This document shows, piece by piece, positions 15,278 to 29,611 of a stretch of DNA of 64,000 bases. Within the stretch, counting starts at the first letter, position 1; every line of letters starts with the position of its first letter. Source of the stretch: Cyclobacteriaceae bacterium (GTDB lineage: Bacteria; Bacteroidota; Bacteroidia; Cytophagales; Cyclobacteriaceae). The stretch lies in NCBI GenBank assembly GCA_040079965.1, contig JBEBJH010000001.1, positions 3,862 to 67,861 on the forward strand. Reading direction: 5' to 3'. A program made the position numbers and the translations under genes. The notes below the pieces were generated by a model, which worked only from the letters and a program-made list of their open reading frames with translations, searched no databases and was not told the origin of the DNA.

Positions 15278-16462
15278 ATGAGAAAGTCCCCACTGTTTGT
15301 TTTATTTATAACCATTTTCATTGATATGCTGGGGTTTGGAATCATCATTCCAATCTTACCCATCTTCACGAAGGAACTAGGAGCCCAGGACTATCAGATT
15401 GGATTAATCGCCATGATCTATCCGATCATGAATTTTTTCTTTGCCCCCCTTTGGGGAACACTCAGTGATCGCCATGGACGTAGGCCTATTATTTTAGTTA
15501 GCGTATTTATTACAGGCCTTGCTTATCTGGTATTTGCCCAGGTAAACGGATTGATTATTTTATTTCTTTCGAGAATGTTGTCCGGAATTGGCTCGGCTAA
15601 CATTTCGGTTGCCCAGGCATACATAGCTGATGTCACGACTCCACATGAACGCACAAAGACTCTTGGTTTTTTAGGTGCAGCCTTTGGAATAGGTTTCATT
15701 ATCGGACCTACGTTGGGTGGTTATCTAAAGAGTATTTCAGCACCTGGTCAGGTTGACTGGGTAGGCTATGTTACCGCAAGTATGTCGTTTGTCAATTTGG
15801 GATTAGCGTACTTTTTGCTTCCGGAATCCATGAAGAAAAAACGGGCCGATGCTCCCTTTAATTTCAAAGTTGTAACCGGAATTGTAACCGAATTAAAAAA
15901 GCCTTCCATCCGTGAGTTATTGTTGATCAATTTCATTTTCATTGCTGCGTTTATGCTCATGCAGATGGCGTGCTCGCTGATGTGGAAGGAAGTTGATGGC
16001 CTTAATGATAAGCAAATTGGATATGTGTTTGCCTTTACCGGGTTGGCAACAGCGATTGTTCAGGGAGCATTGGTAGGCCGGATGGTAAAATGGATTGGCG
16101 AAAGGAAGATGCTGACCTATGGAATCTTCTTTATGATTGCAGGGCTCGTGATGCTGCCATTGGTCGGGGAGTCTTACTTTATTCCTTTTGAGCTAGTGGG
16201 CCTTGCATTGATTGCGATGGCAAATGGGTGTCTTACACCGAGCATTACATCTATGATTTCAAAATATGCTGATCCCAAAGACGTGGGTCAGGTGCTTGGG
16301 GTCAATCAATCGTTTGGCTCCTTAGCCCGAGCAGCCGGCATGGGATTAAGTGGATTTCTTTATGGAATGAATTTTCATGTTCCATTTTTTGCCGGAGCCT
16401 TCCTAATGGCAATATGCTTTTGGTTGGCAAATACATTTTCAAAAATTCCAACTCAGTCTTGA
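15278..16462 (+). CDS. MFS transporter (DHA1/TetA-like family)
   Basis: 12 TM segments, motif A GTLSDRHGRRP, motif C GIGFIIGPTLGG. Confidence 0.9.
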   Translation: MRKSPLFVLFITIFIDMLGFGIIIPILPIFTKELGAQDYQIGLIAMIYPIMNFFFAPLWGTLSDRHGRRPIILVSVFITGLAYLVFAQVNGLIILFLSRMLSGIGSANISVAQAYIADVTTPHERTKTLGFLGAAFGIGFIIGPTLGGYLKSISAPGQVDWVGYVTASMSFVNLGLAYFLLPESMKKKRADAPFNFKVVTGIVTELKKPSIRELLLINFIFIAAFMLMQMACSLMWKEVDGLNDKQIGYVFAFTGLATAIVQGALVGRMVKWIGERKMLTYGIFFMIAGLVMLPLVGESYFIPFELVGLALIAMANGCLTPSITSMISKYADPKDVGQVLGVNQSFGSLARAAGMGLSGFLYGMNFHVPFFAGAFLMAICFWLANTFSKIPTQS

Positions 16463-17118
16463 ATCGAAGATTTAGGAAGCTTCACTAAAGACCAATAGAT
16501 ATTTCTGAGGTAAGCGATTAAACCAAGTCCTTGAGCCACCAACAGAACCGGGTCGTGACGATAGATTCCATAAATTACGACCATCACGGAAGCAAATGCA
16601 CTGATCACCCAAAAGCCTAAAGGCAAAATTGATTCATTTACTTTCTCGGAGTGATACCATTGATACAGATATCGAAAATTAAGAAGCAATTGGCCGATTG
16701 TGCCTATGATGATAAAAAGATCCGTGAAATCTGCTTTGCTGAAAATCTGATCAAAAGTTTCAGGAGAAAATAATCCAACCCATAAAAGAAGCAGCGGTGG
16801 AAGAGGAAAAATTATGATCCTCAATACGAGTGGAAGCTTAATCCAGAATCCTTTTAGCTGAAGATTACGGATGTAGATATAAAACGAAATGGTTTGTCCG
16901 AAGAGGATTACGAAATCATGTCGGAGGATACCATAGATCAGAAATAGGAACGATCCACAGATACTAAAAATCCAAAATAGGGTGGGAGATACAACCTTGC
17001 CCTCTCGTTCAGATTTTATCCATTGAATAATTGTACGGGCACCAAACAACGATTGGGCAAAGAAACCAAGTCCATAAATGAGAAGATCTTGCCACGAAAG
17101 TTGTCTGATAGACTCCAC
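16453..17118 (-). CDS. Lipid-A-disaccharide synthase N-terminal (LAB_N) domain membrane protein
   Basis: Two internal repeats, FGARTIIQWIKSE...PTLFW and FRYLYQWYHSE...PLGFW, each followed by YGI.RHD.V. Confidence 0.8.
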   Translation of the reverse strand: MESIRQLSWQDLLIYGLGFFAQSLFGARTIIQWIKSEREGKVVSPTLFWIFSICGSFLFLIYGILRHDFVILFGQTISFYIYIRNLQLKGFWIKLPLVLRIIIFPLPPLLLLWVGLFSPETFDQIFSKADFTDLFIIIGTIGQLLLNFRYLYQWYHSEKVNESILPLGFWVISAFASVMVVIYGIYRHDPVLLVAQGLGLIAYLRNIYWSLVKLPKSSIQD

Positions 17119-17159
17119 CCAGGTTACAGGTTAAGGATATGATTTCTTTTTGCTCTGGA

Positions 17160-18335
17160 TTATTCCTCCACCTTATTTTTCATAGTCATCAGAAGATTGT
17201 AAGCCCCTTTAACGACAACTTTTTTATCGACCAAACTCTCACCAGAAACAATTTCGATAAATCCATTTTCAAAAACACCAGTCTTAACTTCATGAATGGA
17301 GTAAGCCGCATCACGTTCAGTCAGGAAAATGTACTGATTGTTTTGAAAGCGGACAATGGCCTCTTCCGGCAGAGCATAGACACTAGTGTTTTTGATTTCA
17401 ATCTCAGCATTCATGTACATCCCTGGCACGAGGGTCTTATCGTAATTTTCAAAATGAGAGTGAACCTCGGTGCTTCTTTCCGCTGATAGATTTTTTCCGA
17501 TGAGAATAATCTCGCATTCATGTCTTTTATCGGGTTGACTATTCGTGTAAGCAAATAACTTTTGGCCGATTGAGAGCTTGCTCAGGTCTTTTTCAAAAAT
17601 CGTCACTGCAAGGTGTATGTCTGACGGGTTGATCAGTTCAAACAGCACTTCACTGGGCTGGGTGAACTTGCCAATATTTACATTCACCTTCGAAACATAT
17701 CCATCAATAGGCGAATAGATATTGATGCTTTTTGAAATCCTATTTTCATCCAGCTTGTCAGGATTTATCCCAATGAGTTCAAGGCGTTCGGCCAGCGACT
17801 TCACATTGATTTTTTCAGTTGCGTAATCAACTTCCGTTTGTTGAAAAACCTTGTCGCTGCTGGCCTTGCTTTGATTCAGTTCTTTCTGTCGATTGTATTC
17901 ATTAGCCGTAAAACTCAGCCGCGCTTTGGCGGTCAAATAGTCTTGCTGTAACTGAATATACTGTTGGTCTTCCATAACTGCAATTACCTCGCCTTTATTT
18001 AGATGCATACCCGGAAGCAGTTTGGTAGACTTAAGGTAGCCCCCCATGGGTACACTTACTGAAATCATATTTTGTGGAGGTACATCAACTCGTCCGTTTA
18101 CCTTCAGCACACTCGATATTGACTTTTGTTCAATTTTACCGAGTACAATCCCGGCATTTTTAAGTTGGGCCGGAGATAGAGTAACAGAATTTTCTACATG
18201 TGTGGAATCAGCACTATCAGTCGTCTCGTTTTTTGAGCCGCATGAGATGACGGACGCCAGAGTACAAATCGCAAGAAGGGACCTTATCATGTAACGGGAT
18301 TTTGTAATCGGATATGTCTGAAGGATATTTTTCAT
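17160..18335 (-). CDS. RND efflux periplasmic adaptor (CzcB/CusB-like), copy 1
   Basis: Lipobox VISC, lipoyl halves (VSVPMGGY..., IYSPIDGYV), YIQLQQDYL, LVPGMYM.AEI. Confidence 0.9.
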   Translation of the reverse strand: MKNILQTYPITKSRYMIRSLLAICTLASVISCGSKNETTDSADSTHVENSVTLSPAQLKNAGIVLGKIEQKSISSVLKVNGRVDVPPQNMISVSVPMGGYLKSTKLLPGMHLNKGEVIAVMEDQQYIQLQQDYLTAKARLSFTANEYNRQKELNQSKASSDKVFQQTEVDYATEKINVKSLAERLELIGINPDKLDENRISKSINIYSPIDGYVSKVNVNIGKFTQPSEVLFELINPSDIHLAVTIFEKDLSKLSIGQKLFAYTNSQPDKRHECEIILIGKNLSAERSTEVHSHFENYDKTLVPGMYMNAEIEIKNTSVYALPEEAIVRFQNNQYIFLTERDAAYSIHEVKTGVFENGFIEIVSGESLVDKKVVVKGAYNLLMTMKNKVEE

Positions 18336-18433
18336 GTGTTAATTTTTATTTTTTAAGGTTCGGTCACATGGAATTCGCATATTAACATACCCTTGGGGAT
18401 AACGATCTTTATGCTCATTTCATGAAGGATATC

Positions 18434-21400
18434 TTATTTATAAATGAAATAATTGAGTTGAATAATGCTTTCGTTGAGATTGTTCACCGCAATCAAATAT
18501 TCGTTTCGAAGGGAGATGGCCTGGTTGGTAAGCATCACCCACTCTAAGTAGTTGATTCCGCCATTCGCAAATTGTTTATTGGCGGTGTCAGTAATTAGCG
18601 TTGCGTTTGTTAAACCGGTTTGTTCATAATAATCAACTGACCTGGCGAAGTTGAGGTATTGTGTAATGGCCCTTTGATATTCGGTATTGAACTGTTGCAA
18701 GCCAGCCAGGTAGTTTGTTTCGGTTATTTTCTGAATGGATTTGGAGGCGTTGATTTTAGCTCTTTGCGAGCCGTAGAACAGAGGTATTCCAAGACCAATC
18801 TGACCTGACTGAAACCGGGCTGAACCACCATATGAGATATTGTCCGCACCGGTACCTCGCATCGACATGTTGTTATAGGCAAACGTGAGATCGGGCAGTA
18901 GTTTGGATTTTTCCAATTTAGTGTTCCTGATTGAGATCTGTTTCTGTTGTTGTAACCATTGAATGGCAGGATGTAGTGAGAGGGTGGGCGAATCAATTGT
19001 TTCAATTCTACTCATTTTAAAATCATCTTCTTGCGGCACCAGTAATGTGGTTGTATTTAATAAAAGTTGAAACTGTGCCTTCAATAATTCAAGATCAGCC
19101 TTCAGTTGGTTGAGTTGCAAACCGATTTGTCCTCGCTGTGTTTCGGCTGTAGTCTTTTCAAGAATATTAGTCTCCCCTACAGCAAATCTTAAATTGGCCT
19201 TCTTCAGAAACTCGCTGTATAAACTATCATTTTGCTGTAACAATTTTCGCTTTTGCTCCAGATAGGTAAGCATATAATAGACCTGTGATACCTGCCGCTT
19301 GAGTTCAACTTCTTTTATGGCTACGTTCAACATACTGCTTCTCCACTCTTCTCGTAACACAGACTTTTGATTCGAATAAACGGAAGGGAAATTGATATTC
19401 TGGTTAATTACAAATCGATTATCAGAGAAGCTACTATTGATCTGACCGTACTCACCGATTACCATTGTCTGAGGTAAGTTCGCACCTGATTTGATCAGCT
19501 GATTTTGATATTCCGCTTTTAATCGTTCGTTCTTAACCAATAAATTATTGACCAATGCAGTATCAATGGCCGCCTGTATAGTAATTGGTGTTTGTGCATT
19601 TGCTCCTGAAACTGAGGCGGTCAGCAGAGCAAACACTAATAAAACAGCTAGGGGCATCATTCTTTTTTTCTTTCCGAGTTTAGTTTCAAATATGATATAT
19701 AACACAGGCAGAACAAATAAAGTAAGTAGCGTGGCGATCAGTAAACCCCCGATTACAACGGTGGCCAATGGTCGCTGAACTTCAGCACCGGCACCAGTGC
19801 TCAAGGCCATGGGTAAAAAGCCTAAGGATGCAACCAAGGCTGTCATGAGTACGGGGCGTAACCTGAGTTTTGTTCCAGATATCACAATATGGTAGAGGTT
19901 GAATTGTCCCTCTGCCTTCAAGCGATTAAATTCGGCAACCAAAACAATTCCATTCAGTACAGCCACACCAAACAAAGCGATAAACCCAACCCCGGCACTT
20001 ATACTAAACGGCATGCCTCGCGTTGCGAGAGCAAAAATTCCCCCGATTGCAGAAAGTGGAATAGCAGAATAAATCAGTAAGCCATGTTTGACGGATTTAA
20101 ATGCAAAGTACAGCATAACGAAAATCAATAGCAGCGATACTGGAACGGCAATGCTCAGTCGTTTCTTGGCGGCATTTAAATTCTCAAATGCTCCACCATA
20201 GGTTACATAATACCCCACCGGAAAATTTATTTGAGCATCTACCTTTTGCTGTAGCTCAGTCACTATAGTTTGCACATCGCGGCCACGCACATTAAAGCCA
20301 ATGATGATCCTGCGTTTGGCATCCTCACGCTGAATTTGATTAGGACCTTCTTTAATTTCAACTTCGGCTAATTGATTTAAGGGAATTTGATTTCCCTGTG
20401 GAGACGGGATTAATAAATTCTGAACGTCACTGATATTTTTGCGCTGCTCACCGACCATGCGCACAACCAGGTCAAATCTCTTCTCCTCTTCATACACTTG
20501 ACCAGTGCTTTGCCCGGCAAATGCGGTATTGACAATTCTATTGATTTCAGAAATATTCAAACCGTATTGAGCGATTGCAGCCCTATTATATTTTATAACG
20601 ATTTGAGGCATGCCACCCACAGCTTCCACGTATAAGTTGGCACTTCCTTCTACGGTATTTATCACATTGCCTAACTTGTTAGCATAGTGCGCAAGGGTAT
20701 CCAGGTTTTCTCCAAAGATTTTGCAAACCACATCCTGTCTTGCCCCGGTCATCAACTCATTGAAACGCATTTGCACCGGATACTGAAAACCAAACGTAAC
20801 TCCGGGAACAGCTTCCAAAGCTTTTCCCATTTTCTCAGCAAGTTCATTAAAGGTGGTAGCTGAAGTCCACTCGCTTTTGTCTTTCAGGATTACCATCATA
20901 TCACTGGCTTCGATAGGCATCGGGTCGGTGGGCACTTCACCGCTTCCTGTTTTGCCAACTACCTTTATTACTTCCGGAAAATTTTCCAAGAGTATTTTTT
21001 CACCCTTCAGCGTAGCGTCAACAGAAACACTGAGATTACTTCCTGTGAGCACCCGAGTGTCAACGGCAAAGTCCCCCTCTTCCAATGCAGGGATAAATTC
21101 ACCTCCAAGAAAAGAAAGAGTAATGAGGGCACTAATGAATAATGCAATAACGGTAAGCACTACCGTTTTAGGAAAGCCCAGCACTTTTTTCAGGGCGGCT
21201 TCATAAAGGCGTTCAATTTTTTCCATCATTCTATCAGAAATGTTTTTCGAGTGTTTCACTTTTTTACTTAGAAAAACGGAGCTCATCATGGGAATGTAGG
21301 TGAGCGAAAGGATGAAGGCACCCAGTAAGGCAAAGGCAACGGTTTGAGCCATGGGCTTAAACATTTTTCCTTCAATGCCCTGTAAGCTGAAGATAGGAAG

Positions 21401-22789
21401 GTATACAATCAGGATTATGATTTGACCAAACACAGCACTGTTCATCATCCTTCCTGCCGAGTGGATTACTTCACCGTCCATTTCGTTTTGATTGATCGCA
21501 TTAAGCGACTTGAACTTTTGGCCATGGGCCAACTGATGCATGACAGCCTCCACAATAATCACGGCCCCATCGACAATCAACCCAAAATCTAAAGCTCCCA
21601 GACTCATCAGATTTCCGCTTACGCCAAACAGGTTCATCATGATTACAGCAAAAAGCATGGCTAGCGGAATAACCGATGCTACTAAAAACCCAGCACGAAA
21701 GTTTCCGAGGAATAAGACCAGAACAAATACCACAATCAAAGCTCCCTCCATTAAATTTTTCTCAACGGTGCCAATTGCCTGGCTTACCATTTTAGTTCTA
21801 TCAAGAAAGGGTTCGATTTCTACGCCCTCTGGTAAAATCTTCTTGATTTGCTCGATTTTAGCTTTGACATCTTTAATAACAAGACTGCTATTGGCGCCTT
21901 TCAACATCATCACCACCGCACCGGCTACTTCACCTTCACCATTGTAGGTCATCGCTCCATAGCGAATGGCACTGCCTATTCTCACCTCGGCTACATCTTT
22001 GATGAATAACGGAGTTCCATTCTCCGTGTTTTTGACCGCGATATTGTTGATATCAGCTAGATTGCCAATCAATCCTTCGCTTCGAATGTATAGCACAGTT
22101 GCTTGTCGCTCAATGTAAGCACCTCCGGTATTTTGGTTGTTATTCTCCAGGGCACTGAACACATCGCTAACGGTAAGTCCGTATGACTTCAGTTTATTTG
22201 GGTCAATGGCTATCTCGTACTGTTTCAGTTTACCCCCAAAACTGCTGACATCTGCCACACCAGAAACTCTCAAAAGTTGTCTTCTTACGATCCAATCCTG
22301 AATCGTGCGTAACTCAGTAATATCGTACCGACCTTCATATCCCTTTTTCGGCCTCACAACATATTGATAGATTTCGCCCAGCCCTGTTGTAACGGGTGCC
22401 AAAACAGGCACACCTAAACCCTTTGGAAGTTGATCTTTGACAATCTGTAAGCGTTCGGTTACTTGTTGACGAGCCCAGTAAACATCGGTGTCATCATCGA
22501 ATACGATCGTTACCAGCGACAATCCGAATCGCGAAAAACTCCGGATTTCAAGAAGACCATGAATGTTGCTGTTTACCTGTTCGATCGGGAACGTGATAAG
22601 ACGTTCAATATCTGCTGCACCTAATGATGGAACAATGGTGATTACCTGTACCTGGTTATTGGTAATATCAGGCACGGCATCAATCGGCAGCCGGGTGAAT
22701 TCATAGCTACCATAGCCAATGAGTCCAATCACCAACAGCCCAATGATTAATTTCTGCCTTACTGAAAATTCTATGATTTTATTTAACAT
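18434..22789 (-). CDS. CzcA/CusA-family heavy-metal RND pump fused to a C-terminal TolC/OEP domain, copy 1
   Basis: PIDAVPDITNNQVQV, GALDFGLIVDGAVIIVE (proton-relay D/D/E), RLRPVLMTALVASLGFLPMA. These are followed by a signal-like segment (..ANAQ) and about 385 aa of OEP-like helices. Confidence 0.93.
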   Translation of the reverse strand: MLNKIIEFSVRQKLIIGLLVIGLIGYGSYEFTRLPIDAVPDITNNQVQVITIVPSLGAADIERLITFPIEQVNSNIHGLLEIRSFSRFGLSLVTIVFDDDTDVYWARQQVTERLQIVKDQLPKGLGVPVLAPVTTGLGEIYQYVVRPKKGYEGRYDITELRTIQDWIVRRQLLRVSGVADVSSFGGKLKQYEIAIDPNKLKSYGLTVSDVFSALENNNQNTGGAYIERQATVLYIRSEGLIGNLADINNIAVKNTENGTPLFIKDVAEVRIGSAIRYGAMTYNGEGEVAGAVVMMLKGANSSLVIKDVKAKIEQIKKILPEGVEIEPFLDRTKMVSQAIGTVEKNLMEGALIVVFVLVLFLGNFRAGFLVASVIPLAMLFAVIMMNLFGVSGNLMSLGALDFGLIVDGAVIIVEAVMHQLAHGQKFKSLNAINQNEMDGEVIHSAGRMMNSAVFGQIIILIVYLPIFSLQGIEGKMFKPMAQTVAFALLGAFILSLTYIPMMSSVFLSKKVKHSKNISDRMMEKIERLYEAALKKVLGFPKTVVLTVIALFISALITLSFLGGEFIPALEEGDFAVDTRVLTGSNLSVSVDATLKGEKILLENFPEVIKVVGKTGSGEVPTDPMPIEASDMMVILKDKSEWTSATTFNELAEKMGKALEAVPGVTFGFQYPVQMRFNELMTGARQDVVCKIFGENLDTLAHYANKLGNVINTVEGSANLYVEAVGGMPQIVIKYNRAAIAQYGLNISEINRIVNTAFAGQSTGQVYEEEKRFDLVVRMVGEQRKNISDVQNLLIPSPQGNQIPLNQLAEVEIKEGPNQIQREDAKRRIIIGFNVRGRDVQTIVTELQQKVDAQINFPVGYYVTYGGAFENLNAAKKRLSIAVPVSLLLIFVMLYFAFKSVKHGLLIYSAIPLSAIGGIFALATRGMPFSISAGVGFIALFGVAVLNGIVLVAEFNRLKAEGQFNLYHIVISGTKLRLRPVLMTALVASLGFLPMALSTGAGAEVQRPLATVVIGGLLIATLLTLFVLPVLYIIFETKLGKKKRMMPLAVLLVFALLTASVSGANAQTPITIQAAIDTALVNNLLVKNERLKAEYQNQLIKSGANLPQTMVIGEYGQINSSFSDNRFVINQNINFPSVYSNQKSVLREEWRSSMLNVAIKEVELKRQVSQVYYMLTYLEQKRKLLQQNDSLYSEFLKKANLRFAVGETNILEKTTAETQRGQIGLQLNQLKADLELLKAQFQLLLNTTTLLVPQEDDFKMSRIETIDSPTLSLHPAIQWLQQQKQISIRNTKLEKSKLLPDLTFAYNNMSMRGTGADNISYGGSARFQSGQIGLGIPLFYGSQRAKINASKSIQKITETNYLAGLQQFNTEYQRAITQYLNFARSVDYYEQTGLTNATLITDTANKQFANGGINYLEWVMLTNQAISLRNEYLIAVNNLNESIIQLNYFIYK

Positions 22790-22973
22790 CGCTTTTTTAA
22801 TATAGATCAGAACGGACTTTATTGAGGTATTCTATTCATCTAATTTTTTATTTTTTTTGGCTTGATTAGATAACCAAATCAAACCACATGCAATCGTAGA
22901 TCCAACTTAGAACGCAATTGAAATCCCAATATGAACAGGTCGGGACAAAAGAACCTAATGTGGCTTTGAGGTA

Positions 22974-23378
22974 TTAAAGAATTCGGGGCGGTTGCCAAAC
23001 AGACTGACTAAACTCTGAAGAAAAGGCGGAGTGGTAAAAATTGGAATATGTAACTACTGATTCTAATGATACGATTTCCGGTGCTTTGAATAAGGGTAAT
23101 ACTATGACTGTGTGGGTAAATGTGCAATCTGTGGCTTTAAAAGGCAGACCTTGATGCTCTTCATGTTCTTCTTGATCGTGCTGAGCAGCCCCTGAGCCGT
23201 AGTGAAGGTTTAAAAAATCAATAAAGGAAACATCAGCGGTTTTGGTCTTATGTAGTTGAAAATGTTCAATTAGCTTCGGTAACTTTACAAAATCGTGCAA
23301 ATCTAGCATGCTACCCAACAGGGTTACATTAATTAGCAGGATTCCAATTGCCTTGTGAATTGACACGAGATGAAACAT
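22974..23378 (-). CDS. His-rich small protein ending in WQPPRIL; putative metal-responsive leader, copy 1
   Basis: N-terminal hydrophobic segment and motifs LIEHFQLH, DFLNLHYG, HDQEEHEEHQGLPFK, CTFTH, SVWQPPR. Paralogous to 28107-28505. Confidence 0.75.
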   Translation of the reverse strand: MFHLVSIHKAIGILLINVTLLGSMLDLHDFVKLPKLIEHFQLHKTKTADVSFIDFLNLHYGSGAAQHDQEEHEEHQGLPFKATDCTFTHTVIVLPLFKAPEIVSLESVVTYSNFYHSAFSSEFSQSVWQPPRIL

Positions 23379-23539
23379 TTAGCAGCGTAAAATAAAAAAG
23401 AAAATCTGAATAGATTCTGAATGAACTATTTAAAAGGCTTAAAATAGGGTGAAAACCAAAGTAAGCTCACTTCAATGGCTCTAGCTTTTTGAATTGTGTG
23501 GAGATCGACCATTTTGGATTAAATTTTTTCTTGCCAAAA

Positions 23540-24661
23540 TTACTCTTGAGTAGATTTCATTTTCATCAACAAGCTATAAGCGTTTTTGACAACCAGCTTT
23601 TGAGTAATCAAAACGTTTTTAAGTTCTGTAAAGCCATTGTTCGTCATCCCGATTTCAACAGGATACATGGTAAACACCCCCGTTGATTTTTCTATAAAGA
23701 CGTAGTATTTATTTTCCCAGCTTACAATGGCATCCTCAGGCACAGAAATTACTTCACTGTTTCTAAGCTCAATTTCCGCGGTAATGAACATGCCAGGGAG
23801 AAGTGCCCAATCAGCATTTTCCAGATCGCAGTGTATTTCGCTGGTTCGCTCGTCATTCAGACTTTTGTTAATAAGGTGGACACGCGCGGTATAATTTTTT
23901 TGAGGCTGAGCGTTGGAGTAGACGTTTACCTTTTGACCAAGAGCAATCAACGCCATATCTTTTTCGAAAGCAGTGAGGCTAACATGTAACTTGCTTTCAT
24001 CCACCAGCAAAAGCAAAACATCGGTAGGACTGACGTACTTTCCAACATTGACATAGATACCGGCTACGTAACCGTTGATAGGAGCGCGCAGAGTCACCGA
24101 TCCGGATAATGAAGTTTCATCCAACAGATCAGGATTGATATTGATTAGTTTTAATTTCTCATACAGCGCCTTCGTTAAAATTTTCTGACCCATGTAATCG
24201 CTGCTTGCCTGTTGAAAGGTTTTATCACTGGTAGATTTATCAGCATTTAAATCACGCTGTCGCAGGAAATCTTTAGTAAGAAATTCCAATTTGCTCTTAG
24301 CCATCAGGTAGTCTTGTTGTAGTTGGATGTACTGAGGGTCTTCCATGACAATCAGCATGTCGCCTTGTTTTACGCGAGTTCCTGGCAGGAGATTCATTTT
24401 TTTAATGTACCCACCGAACGGATTGCTAACGGATATCTTATTGGCAGGAGGAACTTCAATCACGCCATTTAAGCGAATGGCAGTGCTCATGTCTTTTTGT
24501 TGTGGTTGGCCTATTACAATCTCAGCATTTTTTATTTGCTCTTGGGTTAGCTGAACAATATTATTTTCAGTGCCAGTTGTTGCTGTATCGGTTTGCGCGG
24601 CTTCTTTTTTACAGGAGAACAAAAGCAAGCCCAAGCTGAATACAAATGCAATTCTTTTCAT
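23540..24661 (-). CDS. RND efflux periplasmic adaptor (CzcB/CusB-like), copy 2
   Basis: Lipobox LLFSC. Paralog of 17160-18335 (YIQLQQDYL, LLPGMFI.AEI). Start refined to ATG 24661. Confidence 0.88.
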   Translation of the reverse strand: MKRIAFVFSLGLLLFSCKKEAAQTDTATTGTENNIVQLTQEQIKNAEIVIGQPQQKDMSTAIRLNGVIEVPPANKISVSNPFGGYIKKMNLLPGTRVKQGDMLIVMEDPQYIQLQQDYLMAKSKLEFLTKDFLRQRDLNADKSTSDKTFQQASSDYMGQKILTKALYEKLKLININPDLLDETSLSGSVTLRAPINGYVAGIYVNVGKYVSPTDVLLLLVDESKLHVSLTAFEKDMALIALGQKVNVYSNAQPQKNYTARVHLINKSLNDERTSEIHCDLENADWALLPGMFITAEIELRNSEVISVPEDAIVSWENKYYVFIEKSTGVFTMYPVEIGMTNNGFTELKNVLITQKLVVKNAYSLLMKMKSTQE

Positions 24662-27600
24662 TTGAGAATTTTTTAAACAATTCGATTTGAAAACCATTTC
24701 GTTGTGCTGTTGAATAATGTTGAAATATGCTGCCCGGATTTTGGATGGAGAGGTTATTCGCAAAGGGCTCACCTGCTTTATATGTCGAAATTTTTTCCTG
24801 TGCTTTCGATGATGCTACATGAAGAACTACAAGAGCCAAAACTAAAATAGCAACAGCTGTTTTTGGTAACGCAAATCTTTTTTCCAGCATGGTATAAAGT
24901 ACGGGTAGTATAAAAAGAGTGAGCATGGTGGAGATAATCAATCCGCCAATTACAACAGTTGCCAGCGGCTTTTGCACTTCTGCACCCGCCCCCTGACTAA
25001 TGGCCATTGGGATAAAACCAAGCGCAGGAACAAATGCCGTCATAAGGATGGCGCGCAATTTTGATTTGGTGGCATGAATAACGATGCGTTCTGTATCGGT
25101 CCAGCCTTCACTTTTTAGCAGATTAAATTGAGAAACCAATAAAATTCCATTCAGTACCGCCACACCAAACAATGCAATAAAACCGACACCCGCTGATATA
25201 CTGAAAGGCATATCGCGGATCCAAAGGGAAAATATGCCACCCATGGCAGAAAGCGGAATAGCAGTATAGATGAGCAATCCTTGTTTGATTGATCCAAAAG
25301 CAAAATAGAGCATGAGAAAAATAAGAAGCAGGGCGATTGGAAGAACAATGGTCAATCGCGCCTTGGCTGCATTGAGGTTTTCAAACGCTCCGCCATATTT
25401 AATGGTATAACTTGGAGGAAGCTTTAAACTCTTTGAAACTTTGTCCTGCAATTCAGTTACAATAGATTGAACGTCACGCCCACGAACGTTGAAGCCCACA
25501 ATAATTCTTCTCCGTGTATTTTCACGCTGTATTTGATTAGGGCCAACAATCTCTTCGATGTTGGCCACCTGATATAATGGCACCTGAGTACCGTTGTCAA
25601 TGGGGATCAAAAGATTTTGAATGTCTTTGACATTTCTTCTCGATTCGTTTTCAAGACGCACCACAAGATCGAAGCGTTTTTCGCCTTCATATACAAGCCC
25701 GGCACTTTGTCCGGCAAAGGCGGTATTTACGGTGTTGTTAATGTCACGCACGTTAAGTCCATACATGGCCATTGCTTCGCGGTTGTAGGTGATAACAACT
25801 TGTGGCATACCCGTTACCGTCTCCACATATAGATTAATCGCACCATCAACGGTTGAGATTAGCTCACCAAGCTTTTTGGAATATCGTGCAAGCGTATCCA
25901 GATCTTCACCGAAAATTTTACAAACTACATCCTGCCGCGCACCGGTCATGAGTTCGTTGAAGCGCATTTGAACCGGAAATTGAAACCCGAAACTTACGCC
26001 TGGAATATCTTCCAGTTCTTTGCCCATTTTTTCTGCGAGCTCATCGAACGAGGAGGCCGAAACCCATTCACTTTTATCCTTTAGTATCACCATCATATCG
26101 CTTGCCTCCAGTGGCATGGGGTCTAGGGGAATTTCAGAGCTTCCGATTTTTGTGACCACTTTTTCAACTTCCGGAAAACGGTCCAGTAAAATTTTTGCTG
26201 ACTTCTGCGTGGTATTTATCGTGTTGGTAAGACTGCTTCCTGTAAGCAATCGCGTGTCGATTGCAAAGTCACCTTCTTCCAATTCAGGAATAAATTCACC
26301 ACCCATGTTCAAAAGCACGAAGACTGAAACAGCAAATAAGCTTAACGTAGTAGCAATCGCTGTCTTTGGAAACGTGAGAACTTTATGAAGGAGCGGTTGA
26401 TATTTTCTTTCCACCCACGCCATCATTTTATCAGCCACTGTTTTTGCGTGACTTATTTTTTTGTTAAGAAACAGTGAACTCATCATGGGCACATAGGTAA
26501 CGGAAAGAATGAAGGCGCCTAAAATGGCAAACGCAACCGTAAAAGCCATCGGCTTAAACATTTTACCTTCTATACCTTCAAGAGAAAGAATGGGGATGTA
26601 GACAATGAGGATGATGATCTGACTGAAGACAGCAGACTTGATCATTGAGACCGTTGAATGCTCAACTTCCTGATTCATTTCTTGTTGAGTGAGCACGCCT
26701 ACTTTTGCAAAATGTTGAGAGTGCGTAAACCGATGAAGAATAGCCTCTACGACAATTACGGATCCGTCTACAATCAGCCCAAAATCAATAGCACCAAGGC
26801 TCATCAGGTTGCCGCCAATTCCAAACCGGTTCATTAGTATTATAGCGAAAAGCATGGAGAGCGGTATCACTGAGGAAACAATCAGTCCGGCCCGCAGATT
26901 TCCTAAGAAGAAGACCAACACAAAGACTACAATGAGTGCGCCTTCTATAAGATTTGTTTTAACGGTATTAATGGCATTGTTTACCATCTTGGTCCTGTCG
27001 AGGAAGGCTTCAATCATGACTCCTTCAGGAAGGGATTGTTGTATCTCAGCAATTTTTGCTTTTACATTTTTTATTACTGCCGATGAGTTTTCGCCTTTCA
27101 GCATCATCACAACAGCGCCCGCTACCTCACCCTGATCGTTATAAGTCATGGCACCGTATCGTGTTGCATAGCCAAGACCAACCAAAGCAACATCCCTCAT
27201 GAGCACAGGCATGCCATTGGCTAATTTCCTCACAACAATTTTTTCGATATCCGGAATTCCTTTGGTGAGTCCTTCTGTGCGAATGTAAAGTACTGTTGGC
27301 CCCTTTTCGATGTAGGCACCCCCCGTATTTTCATTATTATTTTCAAGTGCCAGGAAAACATCAGCAATCGTTACCCCATACGCCTTCAATTGTTCTGTTC
27401 GCACCGCGATTTCATATTGCTTGAGTTGACCACCAAAGCTGCTCACATCGGCTACACCGGGAGTGCCCAGCAGTTGCCTTCTTATCGTCCAGTCCTGAAT
27501 TGTGCGCAGCGACATGGCATTATACCGGTGCTCATAACCGGGCTTGGCCCGCACTACATATTGATAGATTTCTCCCAGACCCGTAGTAACAGGTGCCATG

Positions 27601-27986
27601 TCAGGAATGCCAATGCTATTCGGAATGGTTTGTTTTACCTGGGCCAGACGCTCACTGATTTGTTGTCTTGCCCAATAGATGTCGACACCATCTTTAAATA
27701 CGACTGTTACCAGTGATAGACCAAAACGTGAAAAGCTTCTGATATTTTTTAGTCCCGGGATATTGCTGCAAGACTGTTCGATAGGAAATGTAATCAAACG
27801 CTCAACATCCGTTGCACCTAATGCAGGCGAGACCGTAATCACCTGCACCTGGTTGTCAGTTATATCGGGAACGGCATCAATGGGCAACTGGGTAACCTCA
27901 TAGCTGCCATAGCTGATGAGTCCAATAACGAACAGACCGATAATTAACTTTTGTTTTACAGAAAATTCTATGATTTTATTTAACAT
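24609..27986 (-). CDS. CzcA/CusA-family RND pump, copy 2, with the TolC domain truncated
   Basis: Complete RND body (GAIDFGLIVDGSVIVVE, KLRAILMTAFVPALGFIPMA). After KAQEKIS only about 20 OEP-like residues remain, then an out-of-frame tail that overlaps the adaptor start. Start refined to ATG 27986. Confidence 0.85.
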   Translation of the reverse strand: MLNKIIEFSVKQKLIIGLFVIGLISYGSYEVTQLPIDAVPDITDNQVQVITVSPALGATDVERLITFPIEQSCSNIPGLKNIRSFSRFGLSLVTVVFKDGVDIYWARQQISERLAQVKQTIPNSIGIPDMAPVTTGLGEIYQYVVRAKPGYEHRYNAMSLRTIQDWTIRRQLLGTPGVADVSSFGGQLKQYEIAVRTEQLKAYGVTIADVFLALENNNENTGGAYIEKGPTVLYIRTEGLTKGIPDIEKIVVRKLANGMPVLMRDVALVGLGYATRYGAMTYNDQGEVAGAVVMMLKGENSSAVIKNVKAKIAEIQQSLPEGVMIEAFLDRTKMVNNAINTVKTNLIEGALIVVFVLVFFLGNLRAGLIVSSVIPLSMLFAIILMNRFGIGGNLMSLGAIDFGLIVDGSVIVVEAILHRFTHSQHFAKVGVLTQQEMNQEVEHSTVSMIKSAVFSQIIILIVYIPILSLEGIEGKMFKPMAFTVAFAILGAFILSVTYVPMMSSLFLNKKISHAKTVADKMMAWVERKYQPLLHKVLTFPKTAIATTLSLFAVSVFVLLNMGGEFIPELEEGDFAIDTRLLTGSSLTNTINTTQKSAKILLDRFPEVEKVVTKIGSSEIPLDPMPLEASDMMVILKDKSEWVSASSFDELAEKMGKELEDIPGVSFGFQFPVQMRFNELMTGARQDVVCKIFGEDLDTLARYSKKLGELISTVDGAINLYVETVTGMPQVVITYNREAMAMYGLNVRDINNTVNTAFAGQSAGLVYEGEKRFDLVVRLENESRRNVKDIQNLLIPIDNGTQVPLYQVANIEEIVGPNQIQRENTRRRIIVGFNVRGRDVQSIVTELQDKVSKSLKLPPSYTIKYGGAFENLNAAKARLTIVLPIALLLIFLMLYFAFGSIKQGLLIYTAIPLSAMGGIFSLWIRDMPFSISAGVGFIALFGVAVLNGILLVSQFNLLKSEGWTDTERIVIHATKSKLRAILMTAFVPALGFIPMAISQGAGAEVQKPLATVVIGGLIISTMLTLFILPVLYTMLEKRFALPKTAVAILVLALVVLHVASSKAQEKISTYKAGEPFANNLSIQNPGSIFQHYSTAQRNGFQIELFKKFSNEKNCICIQLGLAFVLL
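24662..24803 (-). pseudogene. Remnant of the internally deleted TolC/OEP domain of CzcA copy 2
   Basis: One frame reads QEKISTYKAGEPFANNLSIQN (copy 1: QTPITIQAAIDTALVNNLLVKN). Another frame reads IRAAYFNIIQQHNEMVFKSNCL (copy 1 C-terminus: LRNEYLIAVNNLNESIIQLNYF). Confidence 0.65.
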
Positions 27987-28106
27987 CGCTACTGACTTTA
28001 CAGTTACTGGGATCGCTGTTTTTGGCAACATCCAGGGAAGCAAACAGAAGAGGATCGAAAATGAACAGGCGTGGTTAACGTTCAATAACCTGTTGCATCC
28101 CAAATT

Positions 28107-28505
28107 TTAATTTCGTGGAGGTTGCCAGATAGACTCACTAAACCCAGTGTAGAAATTTGACTGATAGAAATTTGAATAGGATCTGTAAAAATTGATGGAG
28201 GTTATTTCGCAAGCATTGACATTTGAAATGACACTAAGGATATGAGAAAAAGTACAAGTGCTTGATTTAAACGGAAGGTTCTGATGTTTGCCGCGTTCAT
28301 CCTGATCATGCTGATTAGCCTGACGGCCATAGTGTAAGCTTAAGAAATCGACTAAAGAAAAATTGGACACCCTATTAAGGTGTTCGTGATAATGTTCAAT
28401 AAGTATAGGCATCTTCACCACACTATGTAAATCCACTATACTACCCATTAGAGTTAGCGACAATAGCAGAATGCTTGTGGATTTAGTCATATATAAAAAT
28501 ACCAT
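28107..28505 (-). CDS. His-rich small protein ending in WQPPRN; putative metal-responsive leader, copy 2
   Basis: Motifs LIEHYHEH, DFLSLHYG, HDQDERGKHQNLPFK, CTFSH, SIWQPPR. Directly upstream of CzcA copy 2. Confidence 0.75.
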   Translation of the reverse strand: MVFLYMTKSTSILLLSLTLMGSIVDLHSVVKMPILIEHYHEHLNRVSNFSLVDFLSLHYGRQANQHDQDERGKHQNLPFKSSTCTFSHILSVISNVNACEITSINFYRSYSNFYQSNFYTGFSESIWQPPRN

Positions 28506-28558
28506 GCTCTGGTAACTTAAAATATGATTTATATCACCCGGGCAATTGATTAGACAAC

Positions 28559-29611
28559 CTAAAACAAGGAGAGATTCCCGCCTTTGCGGAATTTTGTTAA
28601 GTCATAAGCAGGCATCTGCCTTCCTGAAAAGTACTTCTTCTTAGAGACTCGATATAATTGATGAATAGCATCAGCAATGTTTCCTTCTCCTGACATTCGC
28701 CTGCCGAATTGTGAATCGTTTACATTGCCACCATGAAAAGAGCAGATCTGGTTCCAAACCTTATCAAACCGATCCGGAAAATTCTTGCGCAGCCAGTCCT
28801 CAAAAATTTTGCCAATAGAGCCATTGAGTCGAACAACCGTCATGCCAGCAGCCAGCGCTCCATGATCGGAGGCTGCTTTTAAAACATGAGGTATTTCATG
28901 ATGATTCAGGCCAGGAATAATTGGGGCATTCATCACGCCTACGGGTACACCGGCCTTCGAAAGTTCCTCAATCGTTTTTAATCGTTTCAGCGAACTGGCA
29001 GTGCGCGGTTCAAGAATTCGTCTTAGCGATTCGTCTAATGTGGTTATTGAAATGAATACCTGCACCAGGTTATCAGAGGCCAGGTCTTTCAACAGATCAA
29101 GATCGCGAAGTATTAAGCTATTCTTGGTGATCATTCCTACGGGGTGACGATAGGTGGCAAACACCCTCAACAGATTTCGGGTGATTTCAAATTTTTTCTC
29201 TTGCGGTTGATAGCAATCTGTGTTGCCGCTGAGCATAATAGGTATTGCATTCCAGTTTTTGTTAAGCAGGTGTTTTTCGAGTAGTGCCGGAGCATTTTTC
29301 TTTACAATGATCTTGCTTTCAAAATCTAACCCGGCACTAAAGCCATAGTATTCATGTGTGTTTCGTGCATAGCAATAAATGCATCCATGTTCGCAGCCTT
29401 GATATGGGTTCATGGAATACATCATACTTAAATCGGGGCTGTCTACTTTATTCACAATCTTTTTCGGAGTTTCGAAAAAGATTTGCGTGGTGGGCGATTC
29501 CAGCAAGGGCTCATCAAGACCTTCGATATGATCGGTGACATACTGAGATTTTAGAAACCGGTTTTCGGTTTTTATCTGGGCCCCACGACCTTTGAAATAA
29601 GATTCATCCAT
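28559..29611 (-). CDS. PA0069/Rv2578c-family radical SAM protein (SplB-like, COG1533)
   Basis: SMNPYQGCEHGCIYCYAR (CxxxCxxC), SGNTDCYQP, ITKNSLILRDLD, LEPRT, APIIPGLN. Confidence 0.9.
   Translation of the reverse strand: MDESYFKGRGAQIKTENRFLKSQYVTDHIEGLDEPLLESPTTQIFFETPKKIVNKVDSPDLSMMYSMNPYQGCEHGCIYCYARNTHEYYGFSAGLDFESKIIVKKNAPALLEKHLLNKNWNAIPIMLSGNTDCYQPQEKKFEITRNLLRVFATYRHPVGMITKNSLILRDLDLLKDLASDNLVQVFISITTLDESLRRILEPRTASSLKRLKTIEELSKAGVPVGVMNAPIIPGLNHHEIPHVLKAASDHGALAAGMTVVRLNGSIGKIFEDWLRKNFPDRFDKVWNQICSFHGGNVNDSQFGRRMSGEGNIADAIHQLYRVSKKKYFSGRQMPAYDLTKFRKGGNLSLF

Follow-up and report, generated by a model that had tools for sequence, protein, structure and literature searches.

Can a heavy-metal efflux pump that has lost its fused outer-membrane channel go on working, and if so, with whose channel? 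The question is raised by a 64,000-nucleotide stretch of DNA (the window) from a Cyclobacteriaceae bacterium (assembly GCA_040079965.1, contig JBEBJH010000001.1), which contains two heavy-metal resistance-nodulation-division (RND) efflux operons in tandem, with all the relevant genes on the minus strand. They are transcribed in the order small open reading frame (ORF), pump 2, adaptor 2, small ORF, pump 1 with its fused channel, adaptor 1. Pump 1 (copy 1) carries a TolC-family channel, the OEP domain, in its own reading frame, and this channel has been lost from pump 2 (copy 2). An old deletion removed the channel of copy 2, and operon 2 has been maintained since; we consider it probable that it borrows an outer-membrane channel in trans, most likely the one made by copy 1.

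The genes and parts involved are the following.

24609-27986, minus strand: ORF of copy 2, 1125 amino acids (aa), with the true ATG at 27986 and the stop codon at 24609-24611
24885-27986, minus strand: CzcA/CusA-type RND pump body of copy 2 (Pfam ACR_tran, 920 bits; TIGR00914, 1145 bits)
23540-24661, minus strand: adaptor 2, a periplasmic adaptor lipoprotein starting with MKRIAFVFSLGLLLFSC, ATG at 24659-24661 (Pfam HlyD_D23; TIGR01730)
18434-22789, minus strand: copy 1, RND pump with fused OEP channel (Pfam ACR_tran and two OEP stretches; TIGR00914)
19595-19681, minus strand: internal signal peptide of copy 1, KLGKKKRMMPLAVLLVFALLTASVSGANA/Q, the slash standing for the predicted cleavage site
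18437-19594, minus strand: OEP part of copy 1
17160-18335, minus strand: adaptor 1 (Pfam HlyD_D23; TIGR01730)

By their profile scores both copies belong to the CusA/CzcA heavy-metal efflux RND family, with a metal substrate and proton-driven efflux predicted. The ACR_tran profile is covered over positions 1-1020 of 1021 in each, and the NCBIfam profile TIGR00914 for CusA/CzcA heavy-metal RND proteins gives 1179 bits for copy 1 and 1145 bits for copy 2, with a cut-off of 701. The ATG assigned to copy 2 (MLNKIIEFSV...) matches the start of all its relatives. The adaptors score 139.8 bits (adaptor 2) and 135.7 bits (adaptor 1) with TIGR01730, for which the cut-off is 94.9, and adaptor 2 combines this with the other marks of an RND periplasmic adaptor, a lipoprotein signal at its N-terminus and a hairpin.

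Copy 1 is a protein of 1451 aa, in which ACR_tran (residues 5-1034) is followed by OEP in two stretches (E 1.7e-23, Pfam), and two OEP domain matches are also found at its locus in a genome-wide search. The two OEP repeats (Pfam PF02321) identify it as containing a TolC-family outer-membrane factor. Its mature OEP part follows ..SGANA/Q and spans residues 1066-1451, or 386 aa, next to the approximately 385 aa counted in an earlier, sequence-only reading of the window. The Pfam search of copy 2 returns ACR_tran only, with neither of the two PF02321 repeats.

The remains of the lost channel are still recognizable in copy 2. The two pumps are 67% identical in a BLASTP alignment, which passes the last pump helix and continues into the start of the channel, where ..SSKAQEKISTYKAGEPFANNLSIQN of copy 2 is paired with ..ANAQTPITIQAAIDTALVNNLLVKN of copy 1. 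Pump 2 runs as ...LEKRFALPKTAVAILVLALVVLHVASSKAQEKISTYKAGEPFANNLSIQN and then into unrelated sequence up to the stop at 24609. A profile of the linker and the OEP domain, made from 116 fused homologues and 430 positions long, matches the pump frame of copy 2 over positions 1 to ~60-66 with 35 bits and a peptide in the adaptor frame, KIRAAYFNIIQQHNEMVFKSNCLK, over positions 404-427 with 10.7 bits (E 9e-6, in a small search). Among 3000 frames drawn at random from the window, the highest score is 5.4 bits and none reaches 10.7. The same two OEP remnants are detected by the profile in two relatives, L001 and L003. Approximately 342 of the ~386 channel codons are gone from copy 2, leaving ~21 N-terminal and ~24 C-terminal OEP codons.

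The relic is composed of the following parts.

24801-24872, minus strand: leftover linker of copy 2, formerly the internal signal peptide or 13th helix (ALPKTAVAILVLALVVLHVASSKA), which ends in SKA/Q and can be aligned with the linker signal peptide found in fused homologues
24738-24800, minus strand: N-terminal OEP remnant (QEKISTYKAGEPFANNLSIQN), 21 codons in the pump frame (BLASTP to copy 1; profile positions ~41-62)
24739-24742: A-run (T-run on the plus strand) at the deletion junction, from the DNA alignment
24671-24742, minus strand: C-terminal OEP remnant, the last helix (KIRAAYFNIIQQHNEMVFKSNCLK), in the adaptor frame and not the pump frame (profile positions 404-427)
24609-24737, minus strand: out-of-frame tail of the pump ORF (PGSIFQHYSTAQRNGFQIELFKKFSNEKNCICIQLGLAFVLL and a stop codon), from translation, the last 53 nucleotides (24609-24661) lying inside adaptor gene 2

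The sequence-only reading had proposed an internal deletion of the fused OEP domain with both flanks readable and about 340 codons missing, and BLASTP, the profile and the 3000-frame null agree with it on each of these points. The possibility raised alongside it, that the two remnants bear no similarity to the ends of an OEP domain, is contradicted by the profile matches of both. The pump and adaptor frames meet at ATCCAAAATCC (24736-24746), which is where that reading had placed a switch of frame. The ATCC...ATCC repeat it pointed out there is absent from the relatives, which read TTTCAAAAAGCC and ATTCAAAAAAGC, and because they do not conserve the repeat it is rejected as a microhomology that guided the deletion. 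The frame change is the result of the deletion and of later slippage, not a decoding event. The 53-nucleotide overlap of the pump ORF with adaptor gene 2 (24609-24661), also described earlier, is real in the window but not general. In L001 and L003 the pump frame stops at a TAA ~10-11 nucleotides ahead of the adaptor ATG, and the tail is in a different frame and 21 codons shorter. The overlap appears private to this genome and to stem from the A-run at the junction, which in the DNA alignment is shorter by one base in the window than in L001 and L003. The relic of the cleavage site reads SKA/Q in the window, SRT/Q in L001 and STA/H in L003, and it is absent in L004.

The genome is a 427-contig draft, and a short form of the pump could in principle be an artefact of assembly or sequencing. 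The chance of this is close to negligible, because independent assemblies from other samples show the same junction and the same gene order. The nearest database proteins, with 93-96% identity to copy 2, have lengths of just 1105, 1105 and 1048 aa and no OEP domain, and those at 82% identity or less are ~1450 aa long and have one. The short forms are encoded in a Cyclobacteriaceae metagenome-assembled genome (MAG, GCA_041736555.1), in the JGI metagenome 3300005831 and in the Logan assemblies SRR28170474 and SRR17068072. The first three of these have the junction found here, while the deletion in SRR17068072 is larger. The DNA alignment of the window with L001 and L003 shows the junction in common and substitutions around it, which also speaks against an artefact. 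The core order of the two operons is identical in all four contigs, and the two long ones, from the MAG and SRR17068072, also keep the outer flanks, from a radical-SAM gene upstream to a LAB_N gene downstream. In every relative the channel-less operon is placed directly upstream of the complete one. The pump of L004 ends with ...LIEKRITRKGNDLQMV and a stop codon, without the linker helix, and ~45 nucleotides of the C-terminal remnant are left; this larger deletion may be nested in the first or may be a separate event. Judged from these comparisons, the deletion is old and common to a small clade, being neither private nor recent.

The direction of the change can be read from a wider sample. 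Among 101 pumps classified from fetched loci, 92 are fused, and in 3 the pump and the channel are encoded by separate neighboring genes. Channel-less pumps are found in this clade only, apart from fragments at contig ends (L058, and L025, which falls within the clade and is likewise truncated). A maximum-likelihood tree built from the pump bodies recovers the channel-less pumps as one monophyletic group with 100% support, whose sister is a fused clade (L005, L006, G055 and L024) and which is nested among fused Chitinophaga and Pedobacter pumps. Given this nesting, the channel-less state is derived from a fused ancestor. The nearest complete relatives of copy 2, of 76-82% identity, are of the fused type. 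Copy 1 is located in the other major clade of the tree, near another Cyclobacteriaceae pump. A tandem duplication of copy 1 as the origin of copy 2 is rejected, given 67% identity and the different major clades, and copy 2 is, on the tree, an old paralogue of copy 1. From its position there it may have been acquired horizontally.

The sequence-only reading had left two fates for pump 2, that it borrows a channel or that the module is decaying, and had named the ratio of nonsynonymous to synonymous substitution rates (dN/dS) on the pump body as a check. The second fate, in which operon 2 is a decaying remnant and an incipient pseudogene, has in its favor the frameshifted tail, which varies between lineages, and the entry of the ORF into the adaptor gene. 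The check goes against it and favors borrowing. All comparisons among the channel-less alleles cover the time after the loss of the channel, and the pump 2 body shows a dN/dS of 0.019-0.037 at a dS of 0.43-1.19, as low as that of the intact copy, pump 1 (0.025-0.038). None of the four alleles contains an internal stop or frameshift over ~1035 codons. Adaptor 2 is likewise constrained, with a dN/dS of 0.053-0.066 for the whole protein and 0.036-0.068 for the hairpin.

Neutral evolution is confined to the leftover tail. The linker shows Jukes-Cantor (JC) distances of 0.25-0.49, approximately the synonymous rate, the N-terminal OEP remnant is neutral with 0.37-0.42, and both carry small insertions or deletions between lineages, the frame that is read differing by lineage. 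The shared junction also argues against a recent transfer from a lineage with a complete gene. Pump 2 and adaptor 2 are thus under strong purifying selection, with only the relic tail evolving neutrally. Because the dN/dS is 0.02-0.07 in alleles that are all younger than the deletion, operon 2 is regarded as maintained, and its decay as highly improbable.

If operon 2 is maintained, the nature of the fusion itself becomes important. The joint between pump and channel in the fused homologues has the form of a complete signal peptide, with a Lys/Arg-rich start and a hydrophobic core, in which Ala is found at position -1 in 108 of 116 and Gln at position +1 in 110 of 116; copy 1 has ANA/Q. Substrates of signal peptidase I in Bacteroidetes follow a Q-rule, with Gln at +1 (PMC5837995). 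With its charged n-region and hydrophobic h-region, and with a small residue in position -1 followed by Gln (+1), the joint agrees with this rule and is a predicted cleavage site. In addition, the same family contains split relatives, G027 (L019, of the same genus), G036 (L020) and G064 (L021), where pump, channel and adaptor are separate genes in unchanged order and the pump ORF either overlaps the channel ORF or lies directly against it. Fusion as well as fission has therefore occurred in the family. The near-invariant Ala/Gln joint and the split relatives suggest that the fused protein is a precursor from which a predicted cleavage yields two ordinary proteins, and, with the lack of any other channel of this subfamily in the genome, they lend indirect support to the idea, raised in the sequence-only reading, of a fusion that is cleaved and a channel usable in trans. 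A channel released in this way could serve any compatible pump-adaptor pair.

The following course of events emerges from these data. Pump 2 descends from a fused pump-channel gene of a sub-lineage other than that of pump 1. A deletion of ~1 kb in the ancestor of a small uncultured Cyclobacteriaceae clade removed ~342 channel codons, after which the linker and the N-terminal remnant drifted neutrally with small slippage, one slip in this genome pushing the ORF 53 nucleotides into the adaptor gene. Pump 2 and adaptor 2 would still form a working efflux machine, with an outer-membrane channel supplied in trans. The likeliest donor would be the channel part of pump 1, freed when signal peptidase I cuts the precursor at the internal Ala/Gln. 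The more specific proposal, that the pump 1 precursor is cut at the Q-rule signal peptide and that the freed channel serves both its own pump-adaptor pair and that of the channel-less neighbor, is possible and is put forward tentatively.

Operon 2 maintains a pump and an adaptor and has no channel gene of its own, as in operons that rely on a channel in trans, and it would depend on a channel encoded outside the operon. The genome is 99.8% complete and contains 28 OEP-domain matches in ~15 genes. When the channel domain of a complete pump 2 orthologue is used as a query, it finds in this genome the channel of copy 1, with 33% identity, and one marginal match of 24%; in the relative G121 a query of the same type finds the channel of copy 1 only. 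The possibility that the channel of copy 2 was relocated elsewhere in the genome is rejected, as the search with the orthologue's channel domain returns that of copy 1, at 33% identity. By this search the channel of copy 1 is the only member of its subfamily in the genome. This, together with the position of its gene beside operon 2, makes it the favored partner of pump 2.

Both adaptors have a well-conserved hairpin with R-x3-L-x6-S at its tip, as read from the alignment, a pattern which we take to be the mark of adaptor-channel contact. The hairpin of the adaptor docks onto the channel (reviewed in PMC8277102). Several points weigh against the channel of copy 1 as the donor. Convergence of the adaptor 2 hairpin on that of adaptor 1 was looked for and not found, the hairpin of adaptor 2 being 57% identical to that of adaptor 1 and 63-74% to those of its orthologues. 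The channel of copy 1 is only ~31-33% identical to the channel of pump 2's orthologues, and the ~14 other OEP genes in the genome could serve instead. A fused gene, moreover, yields pump and channel in a 1:1 ratio, and two pumps would need either sharing or an excess of channel.

Some of these points are equally arguments for a functional pump 2 and adaptor 2 that dock onto the product of some unrelated TolC-family gene at another locus of the genome, for which ~15 genes with 28 OEP-domain matches offer candidates and which the adaptor 2 hairpin, showing no convergence on adaptor 1, would permit. In bacteria that have been studied in depth, several pumps as a rule share one general channel, as with TolC in E. 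coli (PMC8277102). We nevertheless regard this arrangement as unlikely, as none of the other channels exceeds 24% identity to the type of this pump lineage and only one of them gave a score at all, while the channel of copy 1 is the sole member of the same subfamily and is kept beside the channel-less pump in every relative.

Much less likely still is that pump 2 operates with no channel in the outer membrane, for instance by carrying metal only as far as the periplasm, or that it forms mixed trimers with pump 1. In favor of this are the 67% identity of the two neighboring pumps and the precedent of MdtBC, for which mixed RND trimers are known. Operon 2 retains, however, its own adaptor, and purifying selection acts on the hairpin with which this adaptor would dock onto a channel; without a channel this would be needless. 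Borrowing in trans, with copy 1 as the likeliest source, is the explanation that we prefer.

The region ahead of adaptor 2 is conserved in an unusual manner. The 81 nucleotides between the junction and the ATG of adaptor 2 (24662-24742, minus strand), which include the C-terminal remnant, show JC distances of 0.08-0.14, as opposed to 0.37-0.49 in the adjoining relic, and are 3-4 times more conserved at the nucleotide level than is neutral, although the lineages have no single frame in common. No stable RNA fold was found for the conserved stretch of the C-terminal remnant (z = +0.34). In the fused orthologues the end of the channel gene and the adaptor gene overlap by ATGA. Plausibly, the last part of the channel gene may also serve to initiate translation of the adaptor, and such a dual role could account for the deletion sparing this stretch.

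Each pump gene is preceded by a small ORF.

28107-28505, minus strand: small ORF of 132 aa upstream of pump 2, without a Pfam match
22974-23378, minus strand: small ORF of 134 aa upstream of pump 1, the counterpart of the 132-aa ORF

A Pfam match was sought for the ~130-aa ORF before each pump and none was found. A small ORF occupies the same place in L001, L003, L004, L005 and L006, of which L005 and L006 are single fused operons, and these ORFs look like a conserved fourth component of the operon. A scan of the cluster for sigma-70 promoters and intrinsic terminators gave fewer promoter-like sites than shuffled sequences and no terminator between the operons, Bacteroidota promoters lying outside the models of the scan.

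Other observations concern the history of the cluster and of its homologues. Synonymous distances along 16453-29611, compared with L001 and L004, form a mosaic, in which the radical-SAM gene, the LAB_N gene and adaptor 1 of the window are nearer to L004, and pump 2 and pump 1 are nearer to L001 and L003. Such distances suggest homologous recombination between lineages within the efflux cluster. On L006 (8442-9538) a complete orthologue of operon 2 adjoins genes of the phage-integrase type, and these neighbors fit a mobile type of operon. Fused pumps of the Bacteroidota type also turn up in MAGs that bear the labels Comamonas, Asaia bogorensis and Thermoanaerobaculia, on contigs that are short (L047, L061 and L064), for which contamination during binning is more likely than transfer across phyla.

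The efflux systems CzcCBA, CusCBA and ZneCAB of Proteobacteria, which belong to the heavy-metal efflux RND group, are similar to the system described here in the subfamily of the pump (TIGR00914), in the CzcB-like adaptor and in the TolC-family channel. Unlike in those systems, in the ancestral state here the channel follows an internal signal peptide within the pump's own reading frame, and the ancestral gene order is pump, channel, adaptor, with the channel part deleted in copy 2. E. coli AcrAB with TolC and P. aeruginosa MexXY with OprM are pump-adaptor operons that use a channel from another locus, as has been shown experimentally. The copy 2 operon resembles these two in containing a pump and an adaptor only, and it would similarly use a channel in trans. 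It differs from them in having reached this state secondarily, when part of a fused gene was deleted, and in that the presumed donor channel is made within the precursor of another pump. Among the Bacteroidota CzcA-OEP fusions, proteins of ~1450 aa annotated only as 'CusA/CzcA family', copy 1 is typical, whereas copy 2 corresponds to such a protein minus ~342 of the ~386 channel residues. A literature search for descriptions or experimental studies of CzcA-OEP fusions found none.

A channel-borrowing pump is a well-known arrangement and should surprise the specialist only moderately; what is particular here is that the channel-less state was reached by deletion from a fused gene and that the presumed donor is part of another pump. 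Fusions of pump and channel of ~1450 residues are very common in Bacteroidota, as the 92 of 101 sampled pumps show, and the locus provides comparative evidence on whether cleavage separates the two halves into independently acting proteins. One lineage has dropped the channel half, and strong selection has long maintained its pump and adaptor, up to a dS of ~1.2. If the freed channel of pump 1 does serve both pump-adaptor pairs, the channel-less clade and the split relatives would be evolutionary proof that the widespread Bacteroidota 'fusion' is a polyprotein with separately working halves, and their covalent synthesis in a 1:1 ratio would not be required for function.

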